In this document: piece after piece, positions 10,925 through 35,635 of the stretch
How the letters are laid out: each line of letters begins with the position of its first letter
How positions within the stretch are numbered: the stretch's first letter is position 1
Origin: an uncultured delta proteobacterium
GTDB lineage: Bacteria > Desulfobacterota > Binatia > Binatales > Binataceae
Direction: 5' to 3'
Assembly (NCBI GenBank): GCA_963747845.1
Contig: CAVVGR010000005.1
Span: 3,508 to 67,507, forward strand
Length of the DNA stretch: 64,000 bases
The notes under the pieces: model-generated
What the model was told of the DNA's origin: nothing
Databases searched by the model: none
What the model saw: only the letters and a program-made list of their open reading frames with translations
Translations under genes and position numbers: made by a program

Positions 10925-11452
10925 ATGAGCAAAGATTGGCGCGCGAAGATCAGTATGCGGCAGGGCGACCTGACGGACGCGGACGTCGATGCGATCGTCA
11001 ATGCGGCGAACAACGATCTGATGCTCGGTGGCGGCGTGGCGGGCGCGATTCGCGTCAGAGGCGGCCCTACGATTCAGCAGGAATGCGACAGGATTGGACC
11101 GATTGCGCTCGGCGAGGCGGCGATTACAGGCGCGGGAGCGCTGCGCGCGCGGCACGTGATTCACGCGGCGAGCATGCGGCTGGGAGAATCGACGTCAGAA
11201 GCGAATCTGCGCGCGGCGACACCGCAACTCGCTGATGCGCGCCAACGAGAACTCGCTCAAGTCGATCGCATTTCCCGCGATCGGCACCGGCATCGCAGGG
11301 TTTCCGATCGAGCGATGCGCCGAGGTGATGCTCGAGGAAGTGCGCGCCCATCTCAAGCGGTCCGACGACGCTGGAGCGCGTCGATTTTGTACTCTTCGAT
11401 CGGCGATCGCTGGAGATCTTCGAGCGAGTGCTCGCCGGGAATGAAATACTAG
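10925..11452 (+). CDS. Macro domain protein (O-acetyl-ADP-ribose deacetylase-like); frameshifts near 11222 and 11360
   Basis: [32 protein letters not shown] spread over frames. Confidence 0.85.
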
Positions 11453-13058
11453 TGAGCGCCCACGCCACTGGTAGGTTGCGCACGCCGCAATAGTAAGAAC
11501 GTCGGAATCAAAATCATCATTACAATAGCCAGTGTGCGATAGATGTCGTTGAATGACAGCATCATCGCCTGCCGCTGAATCATCCCGTACACCATCCCAA
11601 GTCCCTCTTTCTGCCCATTGAGTATTTGCGGCATGTAGTCAAATCCGCGGCTGCCGGGCATGAGCTGTGGCGAGGCGCTCATCTTCCACGCGTCGAAGAC
11701 AGTGAAGTGCTCGACCAGGTACGACTGATGCGTCTGTTCGTGATCCACCAGCACGGTCGTCATGTACGAGATGCCGATCGCGGCGCCCGTGTTGCGCATC
11801 ATGTTGTACAGGCTCGCGGCATGGCCAACGTGCTCGCGGCTGACGCACGAAAGCGTGGTGGCAGACAGCGTGGGAAAGATCATGCCCATTCCGACGCCCA
11901 TGACCAGGCTCGGCCACGTCACCGTCCACGTGCTGACGTCGGTGTTCCATCCGGCCATCGTCCACAGCGCCACTGCCATGATGACGAAGCCGACGCCAAT
12001 CAACGGGCGCGTGTCGTAGCGGTAGCGCGCGAGCTGTCCGACGATGAGCATCGCGGCCATCGTGCCGAGTCCGCGCGGCGCGAGCACCAGCCCGGCCTTC
12101 GACGCGCTGTAGCCCATCACCTCTTGCAGAAAAATCGGATTCAAGAGCCCGGTGCCGAACAGATGCGAAGCTCATCGCGACCATCAGCATCACCGACATC
12201 GTGAAAACGGGAATGCCAAGAATTGAAAGGTCGAGAATCGGGTCTGGCGTGCGCAGTTCGTTGATCGTCAGACCCACCAGGCACATCGCGGCGAATATCG
12301 TGCAGTAAATGACCCACGGCGAACTGAACCAATCGGCGCGCTGCCCGCGATCGAGCACCAGTTGCGCCAGCCCCAGCCCGACCACCAGCAGGATGATGCC
12401 GGTGTAGTCGGTCTTGCCGCCCTTGGCGCGGCGAACCCGCAAGTACGCAGGGTCATGGACGAACGTCCACACCATCAGGAATGCCGCCGCGCCAATCGGC
12501 AGGTTGATGTAAAAATTCCAGCGCCAGTTCCAGTTGTCGGTGATCCATCCGCCCAGCGTCGGGCCCATGATCGGCGCGACCATCAGGCCCATGCCCCACG
12601 TCGCCATCGCGAGCTGCTGCTCGTTGGGCGGGAACGTCTCCATCAGGATCGCCTGCGACGACGGCACCATCGCGGCGCCTGCTGCGCCCTGAATCAGCCG
12701 AAAGACGACCATCTGATCGAGCGACTGCGCTGCGCCGCAGAGGCCCGACGCCGCGACGAACACCGCGACCGACGTCAGGAAGTAGCGCTTGCGCCCGAAG
12801 CGCGACGAGATCCATCCCGTCATCGGAATCATGATCCCGTTGGCGACCAGGTAGCTGGTGAGCACCCACGCGATCTCGTCGACGCTCGCGGAAAAGCTGC
12901 CCTGCATATGCGGCAGCGCGACGTTGACGATCGACGTGTCGAGCACCTCGAGCGTCGTCCCGAGCATCACGGCCAGCGCGATCAGCCACTTGTGGCTCGA
13001 CGACCCGTACTCGGGAAAGTCGGTACCAAGCGGGGTTGAGGCTGCGGCTGACAGGCAA
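11449..13058 (-). CDS. DHA2 (EmrB/QacA) family MFS efflux transporter; frameshift near 12163, start approximate
   Basis: [41 protein letters not shown]; two ORFs join. Confidence 0.88.
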
Positions 13059-13265
13059 ATTCTCCGTGCGGCGTGCTCTTCACAGAGTAAACGCGATGGA
13101 TTCGCAAGGATACCGTGAAAACAAATTCGACACTCGACGTTCATCGCGTCGTAACGTGGCTCGCTTCTAATCAGGGCAGGATGAGTGCGCGATATTTTCA
13201 GCGCGCCGGTGCGGATGTGGGGCTATATGGATGACATCGAGCGCCTGGGACGGTACCTTCTAAGC

Positions 13266-14781
13266 ATGCGGTTGGGAGCGATCGACGTCGGATCCAACTC
13301 CGTCCACATGATCGTCGCCGATGTGAGCCGCGAGGGCCACATCGAAGTCGTCGACCGCGTCAAGGAAATGGTGCGGCTCGGCCGCCGCTCGTTCACCACC
13401 GGACGCCTCACCGCCGAATCGATGGACCTCGCGGTCCGCGCGCTGGTTAATTTCAAACGGCTGCTGCGAGTGCGCCGCGTCGAACGATTGCGCGCGGTGG
13501 CAACCAGCGCCGTGCGCGAGGCGCGCAATCGCACCGAATTCATCCGGCGTATCAAGCGCGAGACCGGCCTTACCGTTGAAGTTATCTCCGGCCTCGACGA
13601 GGCGCGGCTTGATCTTCCAGGCCGCGCGCCATGCGCTCGGTCTCGACGGCGGACCTCATCTGCTCGTCGACGTCGGCGGCGGCAGCGTGGAACTCGTGCT
13701 GGTGCGCGACGGCAAGCCGCTCTGGATGCGCAGTGTGAAGCTCGGCGCCGCGCGGCTCGCCGAGAGATTTCTGCTCGACGACCCGCCGACGCGCGCGCAG
13801 TTGAGCAAGCTCGAGGCGCATCTCGAGCGCGCGATCGGCCCGTTGATGCGCAAGGCAAAGCGCGCAGGCGTAATCCGCGCGGTCGGAACCTCGGGCACCA
13901 TCAACACGCTCGTCGCGATGGCGCGATCGTCGCGCGGCGAGGAGCTCGGCCGCCTGCACGGCGCCAGCGCCTCGGCCGGCGAGATTTCCGATCTGTCGCG
14001 CGACCTGGTCGAGGCCAACGCGGCGCTGCGCGTCGATCTCCCCGGCATGGACGCCAAGCGCGTCGACCTGATGCCGGCGGCCGCTACCCTGGTGAACTTC
14101 ATCTTGAAGAAATCGGGCGCGCCCGAGCTCTTCGCATGCACCTGGGCACTGCGCGAGGGCGTGCTGCTGGGACTCGCGCGCAAGTTCGATTCGCGCTCCG
14201 CGATCGACGCCCGGCGCCGATCGGTCGGCGCCCTCGCCACTCGATTTGCCGGCGCCAACGATCACGGCAAGCAGGTCGCCCGCCTCGCGCTCAAGCTTTT
14301 CGACGCGACGGCGCCCGTTTTGGGCCTGCCCAAGTCCTCGCGAGAACTCCTTGAATTCGGGGCTTTACTGCACGACATAGGCCACGCGATTGATCATGAC
14401 CGGCACAATCGCCATTCTTACTACCTGATTAAGAATGCGGAGCTTTTCGGCTTCGACTCTGACGAAATCGAGGTCATCGCGCAGGCTGCTCGCGGGCATC
14501 GCAAGCAGGCCCCGAAACTCGATTCGCCGGATTTGAAATCGCTCAGCCCCGCCAAGCGCCGCGTGATAAGGGGTCTCGCCGCGATTCTGCGTGTCGCTGA
14601 CGCGCTGGACCGAAGCCACTTCGGTGTGGTTAAGAACGTCGAGGTCAGATACTCACCCGGGCGCGTAATCGTCGGCGTCGATTCGAAGCGCGAGAAGGCT
14701 GACCTCGAACTATGGACCTGCGAGAGAAGGACCGACTTGCTATCGAGACTGCTGGATCGCCAGGTGGTGCTGCAGCGCTAG
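13266..14781 (+). CDS. ppx: Ppx/GppA exopolyphosphatase with C-terminal HD domain; frameshift near 13610
   Basis: AIDVGSNS, ATSAVREA, DVGGGSVE, ALREG, LLHDIGH. Confidence 0.92.
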
Positions 14782-15575
14782 AGCTGCCGCCCGCCGAACC
14801 TGCCACTTCCCACAACGGCCACGTTACTCCGTCCGCCGAGCCCACGCCCAGGACTGCGCCGAAGACCCTGCTCGAAACGCCGCATCCGTATCGCGGCCGT
14901 TTGATCTGCGTCGAGGGGATCGACGGCTCCGGCAAGTCGACGCAACTGCTGCTGCTCGAGCGATGGCTGCGATCGCGCGGCTACCCGGTGCATTTCACCG
15001 AATGGAATTCATCGCGGCTGGTGCGGCGCTCGATGCAACGTGGCAAGAAAAAAAATCTGCTTACGCCGACTACCTTCTCGCTGCTGCACGCCGTCGATTT
15101 CGCCGATCGCCTGACCTATCAGATCCTGCCGCCGCTCAAGGCCGGCATGATCGTGCTCGCCGATCGCTACGTCTACACCGCATTCGCCCGCGACGTCGCG
15201 CGCGGCGTGCATCCCGATTGGGTCCGCGCCGTGTATAGCCCCGCGCTGCGCCCCGACTTGACGCTCTACTTCCGCGTGCCGATCGACACTTCGCTCGAGC
15301 GGCTGCTTTCGGGACGCGCCAAGCTCAAGTACCACGAGGCCGGTATGGACGTCGGTCTTTCGACCGATCCGGTCGAGAGCTTCCGCATGTTCCAGAGCCG
15401 CGTGCTCGAAATTTACGATCAACTGACTGACGAATTCGGGATGCGTCCGATTGACGCGGCCGCCGAGATTCCCGAACAACAGCGAGTCGTGCGCACGATG
15501 GTCCAGGAGATTCTTCGCGACTACGACCGCAAGCGGGCGAACGGAAAAAATGGCGTCACATCGCAGCCGCGCTAA
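14712..15575 (+). CDS. Thymidylate-kinase-like P-loop protein A (start uncertain, overlaps ppx by 70 nt)
   Basis: P-loop EGIDGSGKST, ADRYVYTAFARD. Confidence 0.85.
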   Translation: MDLREKDRLAIETAGSPGGAAALELPPAEPATSHNGHVTPSAEPTPRTAPKTLLETPHPYRGRLICVEGIDGSGKSTQLLLLERWLRSRGYPVHFTEWNSSRLVRRSMQRGKKKNLLTPTTFSLLHAVDFADRLTYQILPPLKAGMIVLADRYVYTAFARDVARGVHPDWVRAVYSPALRPDLTLYFRVPIDTSLERLLSGRAKLKYHEAGMDVGLSTDPVESFRMFQSRVLEIYDQLTDEFGMRPIDAAAEIPEQQRVVRTMVQEILRDYDRKRANGKNGVTSQPR

Positions 15576-16305
15576 AACCTGGTACGGGCACGGGCTGCCG
15601 TACGTCACGAAAAAGCGCCTTCCTGGGCACTTGATCGCGATCGAAGGGACCGACGGCGTCGGCCGCTCCGCGCAAATCGAGCTGCTCCGCCCATGGCTCG
15701 AGCTCGAAGGCTACGCCGTCAGCAACACCGGATGGACGCGATCGCCCCTGCTCTCGGAGACCATCAACGAGGCCAAGGCCGGTCATCAGCTTACTGTCAC
15801 GACCTTCTCGCTGCTCTACGCCGCCGATTTTGCCGATCGCCTCGAACACGAAATCCTGCCCGCGCTGCAGGCCGGCTTCATCGTGATCGCCGACCGCTAC
15901 ATGTACACCGCTTTCGCCCGCAACAACGTGATGGGCGCCGACCCGAATTGGACGCGCGACGTCTTCGGCATGGCGCTGGTCCCCGACCTCGTCCTCTATC
16001 TCGACATCGACGTCGAGTCGCTCATCCCGCGCGTCATCATGGGCAAGGGGATGGATTACTGGGAATCCGGGATGCACCTGGCGCTTGGCACCGACCTGTT
16101 CGATTCATTCGAGCGCTACCAGAGCCGCCTCATCGACGAGTACCGCCAGCTCTCCAGCGAGTTCGGCTTCATCTCCGTCGATGCGCGCCTGCCGGTCGAC
16201 GAGCTGCAGGGCGAACTTCGAAAACACATCGCCGAATATCTGTCCGGCGCCAACGGCAAGTCGCACCCCGAGTCTGCTGACAGCATCGTCTCGCGCAAGG
16301 ATTAA
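15550..16305 (+). CDS. Thymidylate-kinase-like protein B with degenerate P-loop
   Basis: EGTDGVGRSA, ADRYMYTAFARN; paralog of the upstream gene. Confidence 0.85.
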   Translation: MASHRSRAKTWYGHGLPYVTKKRLPGHLIAIEGTDGVGRSAQIELLRPWLELEGYAVSNTGWTRSPLLSETINEAKAGHQLTVTTFSLLYAADFADRLEHEILPALQAGFIVIADRYMYTAFARNNVMGADPNWTRDVFGMALVPDLVLYLDIDVESLIPRVIMGKGMDYWESGMHLALGTDLFDSFERYQSRLIDEYRQLSSEFGFISVDARLPVDELQGELRKHIAEYLSGANGKSHPESADSIVSRKD

Positions 16306-16431
16306 GAAGGTGTAAGGATTAACCAGCGATAGTTGAGTCGCACGCCGATTCGCCGCCCGCATGATGACGTTCTCGCCGCCTCACTCAAATCACGATTCGA
16401 AAAACTCGCATTTCGTCACGGAAGCAACCTC

Positions 16432-16932
16432 ATGATGCTCTATATTTTGCGTCACGCGACCGCCGAAGAGGCCGCCTCGAGCGGCGACGACGGCGCGCGC
16501 AAGCTGACCGAGCGTTCGAAGGAAAAAATGCTGGGAGCTGCCGCCGGCCTGCGCGCGATGGGTCTGAAGTTCGATGTCATCCTGACCAGCCCGCTCGCGC
16601 GCGCCGCGGAAACCGCCGAGCTGGTCTCGGCCGCTTACGAAAATACTCCGCCGCCGCAGGTCCTTCCCGCCCTCGCCACCGGCGTCGCCGCCACCGACGC
16701 GATAGCGGCCCTGCGCGCATTCGCCAAGCATGACGAAGTGATGATCGTCGGGCACGAACCGCAACTCAGTTCAGTCGCGTCGATTCTGCTGACCGGCGCG
16801 GCCGACGTCGCCCATTTGAAGCTGAAGACCGGCGGATGCATCGCGATCGATCTGCCAGCCCGCTTCGAACGCGGCGGCGGCGAACTACGCTGGATGCTGA
16901 CCCACAAGCAATTGCGCACAATGCGCAAATAA
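16432..16932 (+). CDS. sixA: Phosphohistidine phosphatase SixA
   Basis: YILRHA, TSPLARAAETA, IVGHEP. Confidence 0.88.
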   Translation: MMLYILRHATAEEAASSGDDGARKLTERSKEKMLGAAAGLRAMGLKFDVILTSPLARAAETAELVSAAYENTPPPQVLPALATGVAATDAIAALRAFAKHDEVMIVGHEPQLSSVASILLTGAADVAHLKLKTGGCIAIDLPARFERGGGELRWMLTHKQLRTMRK

Positions 16933-16941
16933 TTTCTGTCT

Positions 16942-16978
16942 CCTCTCCCTGTCAGGGAGAGGATGAAGGTGAGGGTCC
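16942..16978 (+). repeat. REP-like palindromic repeat copy 1
   Basis: CCTCTCCCTGTCAGGGAGAGG-ATGAA-GGTGAGGGTCC. Confidence 0.75.
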
Positions 16979-17031
16979 TTGTCCAGCGCGCATTCTTCGC
17001 GCGCGATTCACGATTCTGTTCTTTCGTGTCC

Positions 17032-17514
17032 TCACTCCCAGATAACCCTCACCGGAACTTTCTCCGGCACGGCGCCCTGCGTACCAATCGCGCTCTCCGG
17101 AAATTTATCCGCCATCCAGATCTTCCCCGGCGTAAGCGCGGTGACCAATCCTCGCGGCCTTATCTGATCGCGATTATGAAGTGCGCATGTCCATCGCGCC
17201 GGCTCACCGTTCACCGGCGACAGCGTCCCCGTCATCGCCTCGCAAATAGAACCGTCCGACAACTGAAAAATCCACGGCTCTGCTTTGCGATCGCGGGCCA
17301 GCGAGGACTTCGGCAGCGGCTGCGTCAGCTTCAAAACAAACCCATCGGTTTTCAGAGCCGGGTCGGCGCCGCAAACAAGCTGCTGGCGATTCCCCGCCAC
17401 CGTGAAACACGGATCGCTGATCGCGTTGCCCACCGAACATCGCCACGCACCGGCGCGAGGCGCAGCGATAGATTCAGTCCAGCACGAACCTTCCTGCACA
17501 TCGCCGCTCGGCAC
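17032..17514 (-). CDS. Cys-rich hypothetical, probably exported protein (true start likely further upstream, obscured by a frameshift)
   Basis: GSCWTESIAAPRAGAWRCSVGNAISDPCF and several more Cys; reading frame extends upstream of 17514. Confidence 0.65.
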   Translation of the reverse strand: MPSGDVQEGSCWTESIAAPRAGAWRCSVGNAISDPCFTVAGNRQQLVCGADPALKTDGFVLKLTQPLPKSSLARDRKAEPWIFQLSDGSICEAMTGTLSPVNGEPARWTCALHNRDQIRPRGLVTALTPGKIWMADKFPESAIGTQGAVPEKVPVRVIWE

Positions 17515-17648
17515 CTTCGGCGCGAACCGGATTATTTTTGTACCGCAATCGACAAGGGACTATCCGGCATCTGCGCCCGAGCGGTCGCGGCGGAAAAAAT
17601 CAATGCGAGCCGATCAATCCGATCCCGAATTTCCCGGCTGTATCCTCG

Positions 17649-17696
17649 CCTCTCCCTGTCAGGGAGAGGCCGCCGCAAAGCGGCGGGTGAGGGTCC
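17649..17696 (+). repeat. REP-like palindromic repeat copy 2
   Basis: Identical 21-nt core CCTCTCCCTGTCAGGGAGAGG, then hairpin CCGCCGC-AAA-GCGGCGG, then GTGAGGGTCC. Confidence 0.75.
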
Positions 17697-17748
17697 AAAT
17701 TCCTAAATGTCCTTCTTAAGTTGATCGCCAGCATGTAGATCTCCATCA

Positions 17749-19545
17749 TCAGAAAATCGGCAGCCTGATTCCCGCCGTGACCATCGCGCCGCTCGCTACA
17801 CCCATCAGCGCCTCGCCGGCCACCAATCCCGCCGCCAGCAGAATCCCGGGTCCGCTCTCGGCCTCATCCTCGGATCCGAAAACCGAATGCGCAAGCGCGC
17901 CGATAAAAATCGCCACGCTGAGCCCGAACGGGAGATAAAGGCCAATCGCTGCGGGCATGATCGGCGTGCGCCACTTCGATCCGCTCCGCTCCAGATAGCG
18001 ATCGCTGAATCCAAGCATCGCTGCCAGCACCGCGCCCGTCGCGATCGTTCCGATAGGCAGTCCGCCGTGGAAAACTCCTTGCGTCACTTTCGCCATCAGG
18101 AACGCTTGCGGCGCGGCCAGTGCGCCGGCCCGTGCAGTCGGCGTTCCCGCGATTCCGTAGCCCGCGATCAGCAGGTTCAGAATCGGCGCCATCAGGAACG
18201 ACGATGCGATCGCGCCGACCAGAACGCCGATTTCGAGCGATCGCGGCGTCGCGCCGACGTGAAAGCCGGTCGCCAGGTCATGCGTCGAATCGCCGGCCAT
18301 CGCAGCCGCCGTGCATACGATCGCGCCCGACAAAATCGCCAGCTGCGGCCCAACGCTCTGCGACACGCCGACCAATTTCAAAAACAGCGCCACCGCGAGC
18401 AGCACGATCACCGTCACGCCCGACACCGGATTGTTCGACGCGCCGACTATTCCGGTCAGATAGCCGGCGATCGCGGTCGCAAAAAAGCAGATCAGAGTCA
18501 GCAGGATTGCCAGCGCCGCGCTGAGCGCGATTTGTCCGCTTAGTCCCAGGCAAATGGCAAAGATTACCGGCACGCACAGCGCCACTGCGGTCAGCACCGC
18601 ACGCGCCGAAAGGTCGGTGTCCTCGCGCGCCGTTGCGACCGCTTGGGTCGAGCGCACCACGCGGATGCTGTCGGCGATCGCCGACGCTATCCGCTTGCGC
18701 AACTTCCACAGCGTCACAACTCCGCCCGTCAGCATCGCGCCGACGCCCAAATAGCGCACCTGGCCGCGCCACAATTGCAACGCAATGTCGGCGGCGTCTC
18801 CCGCTCCGCCGCCGCCATGAAACGCCGTCAACACCGGAATCGCGACCAGCCATGCGAATACGCCGCCGGCGAACACCAGCGCCGCGATTCTGATTCCGAT
18901 TATGTAGCCGACTCCCAGCAGCGCCGCCGAAATGTCGAGCGACCCGGCCACTGCCGCGTTGCCGACCCATCGCGCGCCCGTCACCGCGCCGGGAATGATA
19001 CCCACCATATCTTGCAGCGCCTTGAGCGCCGCCGAGATCAGTCCGCCGATCACGAGCGGGCGAACGTTAGCTTCGCATCACCGGCCCGAAGCACCTGCGC
19101 GCATGCGACGCCTTCGGGAAAAGGCAGCCGCTCCTCCACGACGTACGCGCGGCGCAAAAATACCACGAGCAACGAGCCCATCGTCGCGCCCACGACGCAT
19201 AGCGCAGTCACCTCGACGTACGGCAGCCTGCGCACTCCGCCCAGAATCACCAGCGCCGGAAACGTGAAGATCGCGCCCGCCGCGACCGCCTCGCCCGCCG
19301 ACGCAATCGTCTGCACCACGTTGTTCTCGAGAATCGTCGATCCGCCAAGAATCCGCAGAATCGCCATCGAGATGACGGCGGCCGGAATGCTCGCCGACAC
19401 CGTCAGGCCCGCATACAAACCGAGATAGGCATTCGCCGCGCCAAGAATCAGCGCCAGCGCGATACCAAGCACGATACTGCGTGGCGTCAGCTCGCGAATC
19501 GCCGCGCCAGATTCCGGATTTGGATTGAATCGTCGCGCTGCACGC
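17749..19545 (-). CDS. OPT/YSL-family oligopeptide transporter; frameshift near 19070, start approximate
   Basis: RELT, ANAYLGLYAGLTVSASIPAAVI, ENNVVQTIASAG, LPFPEGVA, APQAFLMA. Confidence 0.9.
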
Positions 19546-33152: not shown

Positions 33153-33328
33153 GGTGTCACCGGGGCGGAATTTCAGTCAGGAGAATCGCACAAACGGCCA
33201 GTCAAGAACAAATCAATATCCGATAACATCGCGGAAATACTCAAGGATTTGGCAATGGTAAGGTAGTTAGGCATTTGACCGTTCCCGCGGGTAGAATGCG
33301 GAGGGCTGGATGGTGGGGAGGCGGCAGG

Positions 33329-35635
<2,307 letters not shown>

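Follow-up and report, generated by a model that had tools for sequence, protein, structure and literature searches.

Positions 13266–16932 of the window (the whole 64,000-nucleotide stretch of DNA that was analysed) very probably hold a ppx-cPPK3-rPPK3-sixA operon, which by analogy with the archaeal enzyme would be a bacterial (Candidatus Binatus) form of the PPK3 module, the family-3 polyphosphate (polyP) kinase. Its two kinase genes, A and B below, are best read as members of a system that is already known, and their polyP kinase activity is predicted by homology. In Sulfolobus acidocaldarius Saci_2019 (cPPK3) and Saci_2020 (rPPK3) make up the heteromeric polyphosphate kinase PPK3 (Hofmann et al., JBC 2026, PMC12995831), an alpha2beta2 enzyme that acts as a reversible polyP:ADP phosphotransferase (bioRxiv 10.1101/2024.08.28.610084; PMC12995831), and bacterial homologues with PPX, SixA and CHAD neighbours have been surveyed (PMC12995831). 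The preliminary description of this DNA had called the locus a candidate new system and knew of no biochemical characterization; both statements have been superseded, since the archaeal orthologues Saci_2019/Saci_2020 had already been characterised as PPK3 (10.1101/2024.08.28.610084; PMC12995831) and the bacterial homologues had already been described (PMC12995831).

Gene content and layout of the operon

The host is a soil Candidatus Binatus MAG. All four genes lie on the + strand, and the arrangement first described, a pair of thymidylate-kinase-fold genes with overlapping ends between ppx and sixA, was found as such. The ppx gene (13266..14781, ATG start to stop; Pfam PF02541, PF21447 and PF01966, that is Ppx-GppA plus Ppx-GppA_III/HD; TIGR03706) is read here in two frames (below) and overlaps gene A by 70 nt. 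Gene A (14712..15575, 287 aa), the predicted catalytic subunit cPPK3, has the P-loop GSGKS and the motif DRYVYTAFARD, and overlaps by 26 nt gene B (15550..16305, ATG start, 251 aa), the predicted non-catalytic regulatory subunit rPPK3, where the corresponding motifs are GVGRS and DRYMYTAFARN. The start of A at ATG 14712 is the sole in-frame ATG, GTG or TTG ahead of the core and gives the protein an N-terminal extension of 57 low-complexity residues, whose coding sequence runs into ppx; this ATG is kept in four congeners and is a GTG in some related strains. Between the stop of B and the ATG of sixA at 16432 there is no overlap but a 126-nt gap (16306..16431), a spacer from which a CHAD gene is absent (~1030 bp are missing in blastn comparison with the congener loci L019-L022).

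The sixA gene (16432..16932) encodes a SixA-type member of the histidine-phosphatase superfamily (TIGR00249, 78.4 bits against a cut-off of 74.5; PF00300) with RHA and GHEP motifs. A consensus scan found a palindromic, terminator-like hairpin on the + strand at the sixA stop (16912..16928; a 7-bp stem, TTGCGCA-CAA-TGCGCAA, followed by ATAATTTCTG), a possible and still putative end of the operon, and a sigma-70 promoter scan of 12900-17800 found nothing. Outside the operon, ppk1 (33275..35635, +; TIGR03705, 760.6 bits against a cut-off of 465.85; PF02503) begins 16.3 kb downstream of sixA, as the earlier figure of 16 kb had indicated.

Relationship of the kinase pair to dTMP kinases and PPK3

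The products of A and B are 45% identical to each other (E 3.8e-55), and both match the thymidylate kinase profile PF02223 (E 1e-19 and 5e-18, respectively). These matches, and the name ‘dTMP kinase’ that homologues bear in JGI and NCBI records, would fit a reading of A and B as real, redundant dTMP kinases. The remaining evidence makes that reading extremely improbable. Their scores against the dTMP-kinase equivalog TIGR00041 (76.7 bits for A and 77.0 for B) are both under its cut-off of 83.25, and DRYxYTAFAR(D/N) replaces the canonical DRxxxSxxAYQ in both, so that the thymine-binding SxxAYQ is gone; the preliminary description had noted this replacement, and the host’s canonical Tmk, whose motif reads DRYSDSTTAYQG, bears it out. 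The separate tmk whose presence was to be checked does exist, on a different contig and adjoining holB (G000:C12:466254-466859), and it scores 187 bits, over the TIGR00041 cut-off. In addition, Saci_2019 has PPK activity and lacks dTMPK activity, the S. acidocaldarius dTMPK being Saci_0893 (PMC12995831).

The closest relationships point instead to PPK3. Gene A matches S. tokodaii STK_15430 (PDB 2plr/5h70) with 47-55% identity (194 bits, E 4e-56) and true TMKs with only ~50 bits, and B matches STK_15430 with 144 bits. In a maximum-likelihood tree with the host’s canonical tmk as outgroup, the 85 upstream paralogs sampled all formed one clade with STK_15430 (SH-aLRT 98), in which A lies, and B was placed among the downstream paralogs. 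The r-type (downstream) sequences are paraphyletic under this rooting, and we therefore claim a single c clade and not a single r clade. Given the separate tmk and the Sulfolobus PPK3 orthologues, the original proposal, which took A and B out of the dTMP kinases and saw in them a two-subunit, polyP-linked kinase working with Ppx and SixA, appears to have been correct. Its suggestion of kinship with PPK2 survives at the generic level of P-loop kinases and no further: A and B are members of the dTMPK superfamily, the PPK2 profile PF03976 had no match in A or B at E <= 0.01, and the host’s PPK2 is encoded elsewhere.

Distribution and gene neighbourhood

Among 24 genomes of the same genus, 22 carry the tandem pair, and a c-then-r tandem was found in 76 of the 80 best loci, which come from ~20 phyla; the arrangement is thus not due to chance. 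The neighbourhood survey that had been called for shows, by conservative BLAST in these 80 best loci, ppx no more than 6 kb from the pair in 56 and a sixA homologue equally close in 38, and CHAD accompanies the pair in the congeners. The gene order in Metallosphaera (locus L027, the Sulfolobaceae representative) is sixA-ppx-c-r, and the operon of a fused form (L108/L109) has pstSCAB-phoU in addition. The PPK3 homologues fall into 330 clusters (50% identity, E <= 1e-30); the 534 tblastn-confirmed stretches in GTDB species may include canonical TMKs and were not used as a measure of family size. According to the abstract of PMC12995831, PPK3 occurs for the most part in Crenarchaeota, with ‘a few bacteria’ besides; the 330 clusters, and best loci spread over ~20 phyla, show PPK3 to be common in soil bacteria. 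Reading A and B as PPK3 also corrects a widespread ‘dTMP kinase’ misannotation.

The ppx reading frame, the missing CHAD gene and selection

The two frames of ppx result from one extra base at 13608..13611 (+), where CTTG stands in place of the three-nucleotide Leu codon (CTG or CTC) of four congeners, in which ppx is a single intact ORF with 92-96% amino acid identity. Near-identical short-read metagenome contigs that span the site (two from X1 and one from X3) all lack one base at 13608 or 13611. Because the four congeners and every spanning near-identical contig are without the extra base, the frameshift most likely arose in assembly or polishing, and pseudogenisation of ppx was rejected on the same grounds.

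The congener insert between r and sixA is a CHAD gene of ~1 kb (PF05235, 102.7 bits), and the junction without it is spanned by the independent contigs X2 (15847-16626) and X3 (16006-16700); the operon’s CHAD gene is lost in the host species. CHAD is a polyP-granule protein. Taken at face value, a +1 frameshift in ppx together with a ~1 kb CHAD deletion on which independent contigs agree could mean that the module is decaying in the host strain, with ppx a pseudogene, CHAD gone and the kinases to follow. We consider this very improbable, given that the extra base is absent from all near-identical spanning contigs and four congeners, that the assembly contains other split genes (for example an MFS gene at 11449-13144), and that dN/dS is 0.05-0.11.

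The individual dN/dS values are 0.055-0.105 for ppx, 0.07-0.10 for rPPK3 and 0.07-0.115 for sixA, with all four operon genes at about 0.05-0.11. The operon genes are under purifying selection, and the rPPK3 value in particular indicates that gene B is maintained. Soil metatranscriptome contigs from related strains (90-99% identity), whose libraries may contain DNA, extend across ppx, c and r, with the two junctions bridged as well.

Subunit signatures and proposed mechanism

Gene A carries the Walker-A lysine (K75), D151-R152, E97-W98-N99-S100, the GKKK patch and lid residues R202 and K206, each at least 94% conserved among c-type sequences. The basic residues of GKKK and the lid are predicted to bind polyP in A; their role in the polyP cleft is an assignment taken from PMC12995831. 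In B the Walker-A lysine is replaced by arginine (R39, GVGRS), D115-R116-Y117 and most shared active-site residues are kept, and the residues A41, M128 and H176 deviate at positions where conservation among the r-type sequences is at least 95%. The Walker-A K-to-R replacement occurs in 77 of the 81 downstream (r) subunits sampled, B among them, and DR is kept in 80 of 81, the sole exception being the r sequence of Metallosphaera (the Sulfolobaceae representative) with D-G. The r-type sequences lack the EWNSS motif, EWNS being replaced; their GKKK patch is variable, and nothing conserved in them corresponds to the c-type lid residues R202 and K206.

A heteromer of c and r is predicted from the Sulfolobus enzyme, and some proteins join the two in one chain; these fusions, together with a structure model of one of them, lend the heteromer indirect support. 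Robust examples of these natural c-r fusions form a family of 526-532 aa; one of them, P0330, is identical on independent JGI and ENA contigs and lies between ppx and a CHAD-SixA fusion. An AF2 model was made of another c-r fusion, P0061, whose contig is full of split genes so that the fusion may be indel-made (pLDDT 87.6, pTM 0.86); its best PDB matches are STK_15430 chains, which align with one TMK-fold domain (~205 residues) at TM 0.89-0.93 and rmsd 1.8-2.3 Å. P0099, also considered as a natural c-r fusion, was excluded as frameshift-made.

By homology with the archaeal system, A would be the catalytic subunit: it has the fold of a dTMPK, but DRYxYTAFARD and basic residues predicted to bind polyP (GKKK, lid R/K) take the place of the dTMP pocket. 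B would be its non-catalytic paralogous partner, which has Arg for the Walker-A Lys and no longer carries the basic patch or the lid residues; if it behaves as Saci_2020 does, it would oligomerise with A and raise its activity. The complex would transfer the terminal phosphate reversibly between polyP and ADP/ATP and favour ATP formation from polyP as the ATP/ADP ratio falls; Ppx would trim polyP, and the SixA-like phosphatase is a conserved companion. Both the polyP kinase activity of Binatus A plus B and its preferred direction are predictions from the Sulfolobus enzyme, that is, from archaeal proteins ~50% identical to these.

Walker-A Lys-to-Arg changes in other P-loop proteins often allow nucleotide binding without transfer. 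The retention of DRY and most shared active-site residues in r, beside a near-universal Walker-A K-to-R change, gives grounds for thinking of a sensor. One speculative reading, which we rate as rather unlikely, is that outside the Sulfolobaceae rPPK3 is not a dead scaffold but an adenylate-sensing subunit that would set the direction of cPPK3 by ATP/ADP, with PPK3 in Binatus, beside PPK1 and PPK2, a dedicated polyP-to-ATP emergency valve; to this reading also belongs a place of action for SixA at the polyP granule, as the CHAD-SixA fusions suggest. The inactivity of the r subunit has been ascribed to replacement of the DRX arginine (PMC12995831); B keeps DRY, so its regulatory mechanism may differ from the one described there.

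Coexistence with PPK1 and PPK2

Across 24 congeners PPK1 is present in 23, PPK2 in 21 and the PPK3 pair in 22; Binatus genomes carry PPK1, PPK2 and PPK3 together. In the host, PPK2 is a separate gene on the separate contig C3 (C3:409018-409719). Most PPK3 carriers lack both PPK1 and PPK2 (PMC12995831), and as Binatus has both, the physiological role of its PPK3 may not match the one described for those organisms.

With PPK1 and PPK2 already there to make and consume polyP, the pair could have kept PPK3 fold and ancestry while being repurposed in Binatus, as a nucleotide or small-molecule kinase or a nucleotide-sensing Ppx regulator rather than a polyP kinase. The co-occurrence of the three families in the genus agrees with this, as do the retention in B of DRY and most shared active-site residues and its departures at A41, M128 and H176. 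However, A keeps every c-type invariant residue, basic patch and lid included, linkage to ppx and sixA is unchanged (with CHAD also kept in congeners), and the dN/dS of the pair is as low as that of ppx, all of which make repurposing improbable.

Comparison with known systems

The operon resembles that of SaPPK3 in that tandem dTMPK-superfamily paralogs, c upstream of r, come straight after ppx, with SixA in the same cluster (and CHAD too in Binatus congeners), the canonical tmk elsewhere in the genome, and the basic cleft residues conserved only in the c subunit. It differs in several respects: the Binatus r keeps the DRX arginine and has its evident lesion in the Walker-A K-to-R change, whereas the SaPPK3 paper reports the rPPK3 arginine as replaced; the Binatus host is bacterial and also has PPK1 and PPK2; the operon of this Binatus species has no CHAD gene; and Binatus A bears the 57-aa low-complexity N-terminal extension overlapping ppx.

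Across the full length of both A and B, the best solved relative is STK_15430 (St1543) of Sulfurisphaera tokodaii (PDB 2plr, 4nzy, 4rzx, 5h70), which shares EGIDGSGKS, TEWNSS, KKK-LLTP and DRYxYTAxARD; it was crystallised alone, and its PDB entries call it a ‘dTMP kinase’. Its Walker-A Lys, EWNSS motif and basic patch are not shared by B. Canonical Tmk (TIGR00041) has the fold, P-loop, DR motif and lid architecture in common with A and B, but these are under the equivalog cut-off, lack SxxAYQ and belong to a separate clade, and the real tmk (187 bits) adjoins holB.

Two-domain class II PPK2 (P. aeruginosa PA3455) offers a parallel in which an active, polyP-using P-loop kinase is assisted by a paralog or domain that is itself inactive, and the natural c-r PPK3 fusions mimic this two-domain architecture. 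It is nonetheless another family: A and B have no PF03976 match, the host’s PPK2 is a separate gene, and the inactive domain of PA3455 is N-terminal, whereas the inactive PPK3 partner is downstream or C-terminal. The basic published picture of PPK3 is unchanged by the Binatus findings, and what they add to it are leads for polyP biology, namely a Walker-A K-to-R signature that marks the r subunit throughout the family, the presence of three PPK families in one genus, and the c-r and CHAD-SixA fusions.

Layout and reading frames of the ppx–sixA operon

The window, contig C5:3508-67507 of a 3.4-Mb, 17-contig MAG, has its nearest protein relatives under the names Candidatus Binatus or Binataceae. 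It was analyzed from an ORF list together with Pfam and NCBIfam profile scans, which place ppx (13266-14781; Ppx-GppA plus domain III/HD in Pfam, TIGR03706 in NCBIfam), thymidylate kinase (TMK)-like gene A (14712-15575, 287 aa; PF02223, E 1.3e-19), TMK-like gene B (ATG, 15550-16305, 251 aa; PF02223, E 4.7e-18) and sixA (ATG, 16432-16932; TIGR00249 at 78.4 bits, above the cut-off of 74.5) in succession on the plus strand, with ppk1 on the same strand at 33275-35635 (TIGR03705, 760 bits). The ppx/A and A/B overlaps are 70 and 26 nt, and the A and B proteins, which are 45% identical, carry the motifs GSGKS and DRYVYTAFARD (A) and GVGRS and DRYMYTAFARN (B); from these results the genes, overlaps, motifs and ppk1 all lie where the preliminary description had put them. 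The ATG at 14712 is the sole in-frame start ahead of the A core, and it is kept in four congeners and is GTG in related strains. It opens a 57-aa Pro/Ala/Ser/Thr-rich N-terminal extension (14712-14882) that overlaps the end of ppx and differs among congeners by in-frame indels; a related contig has a 3-nt insertion after 14835 in 4/4 DNA runs. A perfect 7-bp palindrome, TTGCGCA CAA TGCGCAA, lies at the sixA stop (16912-16928).

A single surplus base (CTTG at 13608-13611) breaks ppx across two frames. At this site each of the four congeners has a Leu codon of three bases (CTG, CTC, CTT or TTG in the relatives), every near-identical spanning metagenome contig (two in metagenome run X1, one in X3) is one base shorter, and the neighboring MFS transporter gene (11449-13144, minus strand) is also split across two frames; the extra base is thus best read as a probable assembly (consensus or polishing) error.

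Comparison with the four congeners gave dN/dS values of 0.05–0.11 for ppx, A, B and sixA, with B as constrained as A. Soil metatranscriptome contigs from related populations (90–99% identity) cover ppx, A and B, and sixA is uncovered by them. Some of these contigs cross the ppx/A and A/B junctions, which fits co-transcription of the three genes, with DNA carry-over possible.

A and B belong to the PPK3 family

The best match of A among all PDB sequences was the Sulfurisphaera tokodaii protein STK_15430 (2plr/4nzy/4rzx/5h70) at 194 bits (E 4e-56, full length), and B matched it at 144 bits; canonical TMKs reached only about 50 bits. In Sulfolobus acidocaldarius two "thymidylate kinase" genes that follow ppx, Saci_2019 and Saci_2020, are reported to encode a heteromeric α2β2 polyphosphate kinase, PPK3, here SaPPK3 (Hofmann et al., bioRxiv 2024; JBC 2026, PMC12995831). 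Saci_2019, the homologue of STK_15430, is the catalytic subunit (cPPK3), Saci_2020 is an inactive activator (rPPK3), and the true dTMPK of that organism is Saci_0893 (PMC12995831). The same account describes PPK3 as reversible, with ADP + polyP → ATP favored, and its PPK3 neighborhoods include PPX, SixA, CHAD and Pst.

The Binatus genome likewise has a separate canonical tmk: a whole-genome search with the dTMP-kinase equivalog profile TIGR00041 found one gene above cut-off (187 bits), on contig C12 adjoining holB, and A and B score 77 bits, under the 83.25 cut-off. Adjacency of tmk and holB is the classical arrangement. The motif of this canonical TMK is DRYSDSTTAYQG.

GTDB species genomes were scanned with c-type (catalytic subunit) motifs, and the best 80 loci came from about 20 phyla, including Acidobacteriota, Verrucomicrobiota, Nitrososphaerota, Thermoproteota and Thermoplasmatota. 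In line with the proposed link of the pair to polyP genes, 56 of these best 80 loci have ppx no more than 6 kb away, and 38 have sixA at that distance (conservative BLAST). With five Binatia loci added (the window and four relatives), 81 of 85 loci encode a pair of paralogs, c first and r (regulatory) second, and the other four are singletons cut by contig ends. A maximum likelihood tree rooted on two canonical TMKs unites all 85 upstream paralogs and STK_15430 in one clade (SH-aLRT 98) and places B and the Metallosphaera r subunit together among the downstream paralogs; since r-type sequences come out paraphyletic with this root, we claim only a single c clade. Position-by-position comparison showed that c-type sequences keep the Walker-A Lys, E-W-N-S and lid R202/K206 (at least 94% conserved), H126 and a conserved GKKK patch, and that in r-type sequences the Walker-A Lys (in 77/81), E-W-N-S, H126 and lid R202/K206 are replaced and the patch is variable; D-R-Y, R160, R197, E209 and the DFxD motif are common to both. 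A has all of the c-type signatures and B has those of the r-type. The family is large, with 330 clusters of 50%-identity representatives at E ≤ 1e-30.

These results identify A as a c-type and B as an r-type PPK3 subunit, encoded in a polyP operon that is conserved, under selection and transcribed, the last as judged from transcript contigs of related populations. The preliminary description had proposed a new polyphosphate enzyme system; its functional reading stands, with activity by analogy with SaPPK3, and its novelty does not, since this is the same system as the published PPK3 (Hofmann et al., PMC12995831). The Binatus pair adds a new bacterial representative, as yet uncharacterised, to that known family. 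If it works as SaPPK3 does, A would move phosphate between polyP and ADP/ATP, B would bind and stimulate A, and net flux would run toward ATP at a low ATP/ADP ratio.

Fusions and loss of CHAD

Natural fusions were sought as a sign of physical association between c and r. A search with a two-domain homologue as query found about 30 clusters that span both halves, among them a coherent family of 526–532-aa c-r fusions whose second domain again has G-x-G-R-S-T. One such cPPK3-rPPK3 fusion (P0330, 527 aa) recurs unchanged on mutually independent JGI and ENA contigs (L108 and L109, 4493-9275), where ppx, the fusion gene and a CHAD + His_Phos_1 (SixA-like) fusion gene are followed by pstSCAB-phoU; the SixA-CHAD fusion suggests that SixA acts at polyP granules. 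An AF2 model of another fusion, P0061, built with a 30-sequence alignment (mean pLDDT 87.6, pTM 0.86), has STK_15430 chains as its best PDB matches (one TMK-fold domain, about 205 aligned residues, TM 0.89–0.93), and it is supportive only, since the P0061 contig has many split genes and this fusion may be indel-made. PPK3-like TMK domains 43–51% identical to A also occur within long multidomain proteins (P0168, P0182, P0192, P0265, P0210, P0266, P0172), in the combinations MFS_1 + TMK-like + DUF2252/APH, InPase + TMK-like, and a weak SPX N-terminus + TMK-like + DUF2252.

Four congeners (G006, G007, G009, G018) have a CHAD gene (PF05235, 102.7 bits) between r and sixA. In this species the gene is absent: compared with congeners (insert L019:6668-7698), the stretch at 16306-16431 is shorter by about 1030 bp, and independent short-read metagenome contigs cross the CHAD-less junction gap-free. 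The L019 CHAD gene is itself read in two frames. Elsewhere the genome has just one CHAD gene (C12:353253-353921, L107), and similarity between it and the CHAD of the congeners' operon was undetectable.

Comparison with published PPK3 systems

Modest points of interest are the CHAD loss, the r-subunit signature and the triple PPK complement. The inactivity of rPPK3 has been explained by a replaced DRX arginine (PMC12995831), whereas among the 81 r-type sequences (the downstream paralogs of loci L019–L106 and the window) DR is kept in 80, and the arginine is lost only in the sampled Sulfolobaceae representative (Metallosphaera, L027, D-G). In the 77 sequences with a replaced Walker-A Lys it is Arg, in bacteria and archaea alike, including B (R39) and the Metallosphaera r subunit; the main text of PMC12995831 makes no mention of this change in rPPK3. 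B also deviates at three positions otherwise at least 95% conserved (A41, M128, H176). The second paralogs of four Gastranaerophilales/Melainabacteria loci (L061, L085, L087, L094) keep both the Walker-A Lys and DR and form their own clade (support 100), and from these residues both subunits might be active there.

The c-r pair is present in 22/24 congeners, PPK1 in 23/24 and PPK2 in 21/24. In another Binatia family, PPK2 (G026:C128:75249-75944) lies directly upstream of a cPPK3-rPPK3 pair that starts at ~76690. Most PPK3 carriers are described as lacking PPK1 and PPK2 (PMC12995831); in contrast to those published carriers, the Binatus genome holds both beside PPK3.
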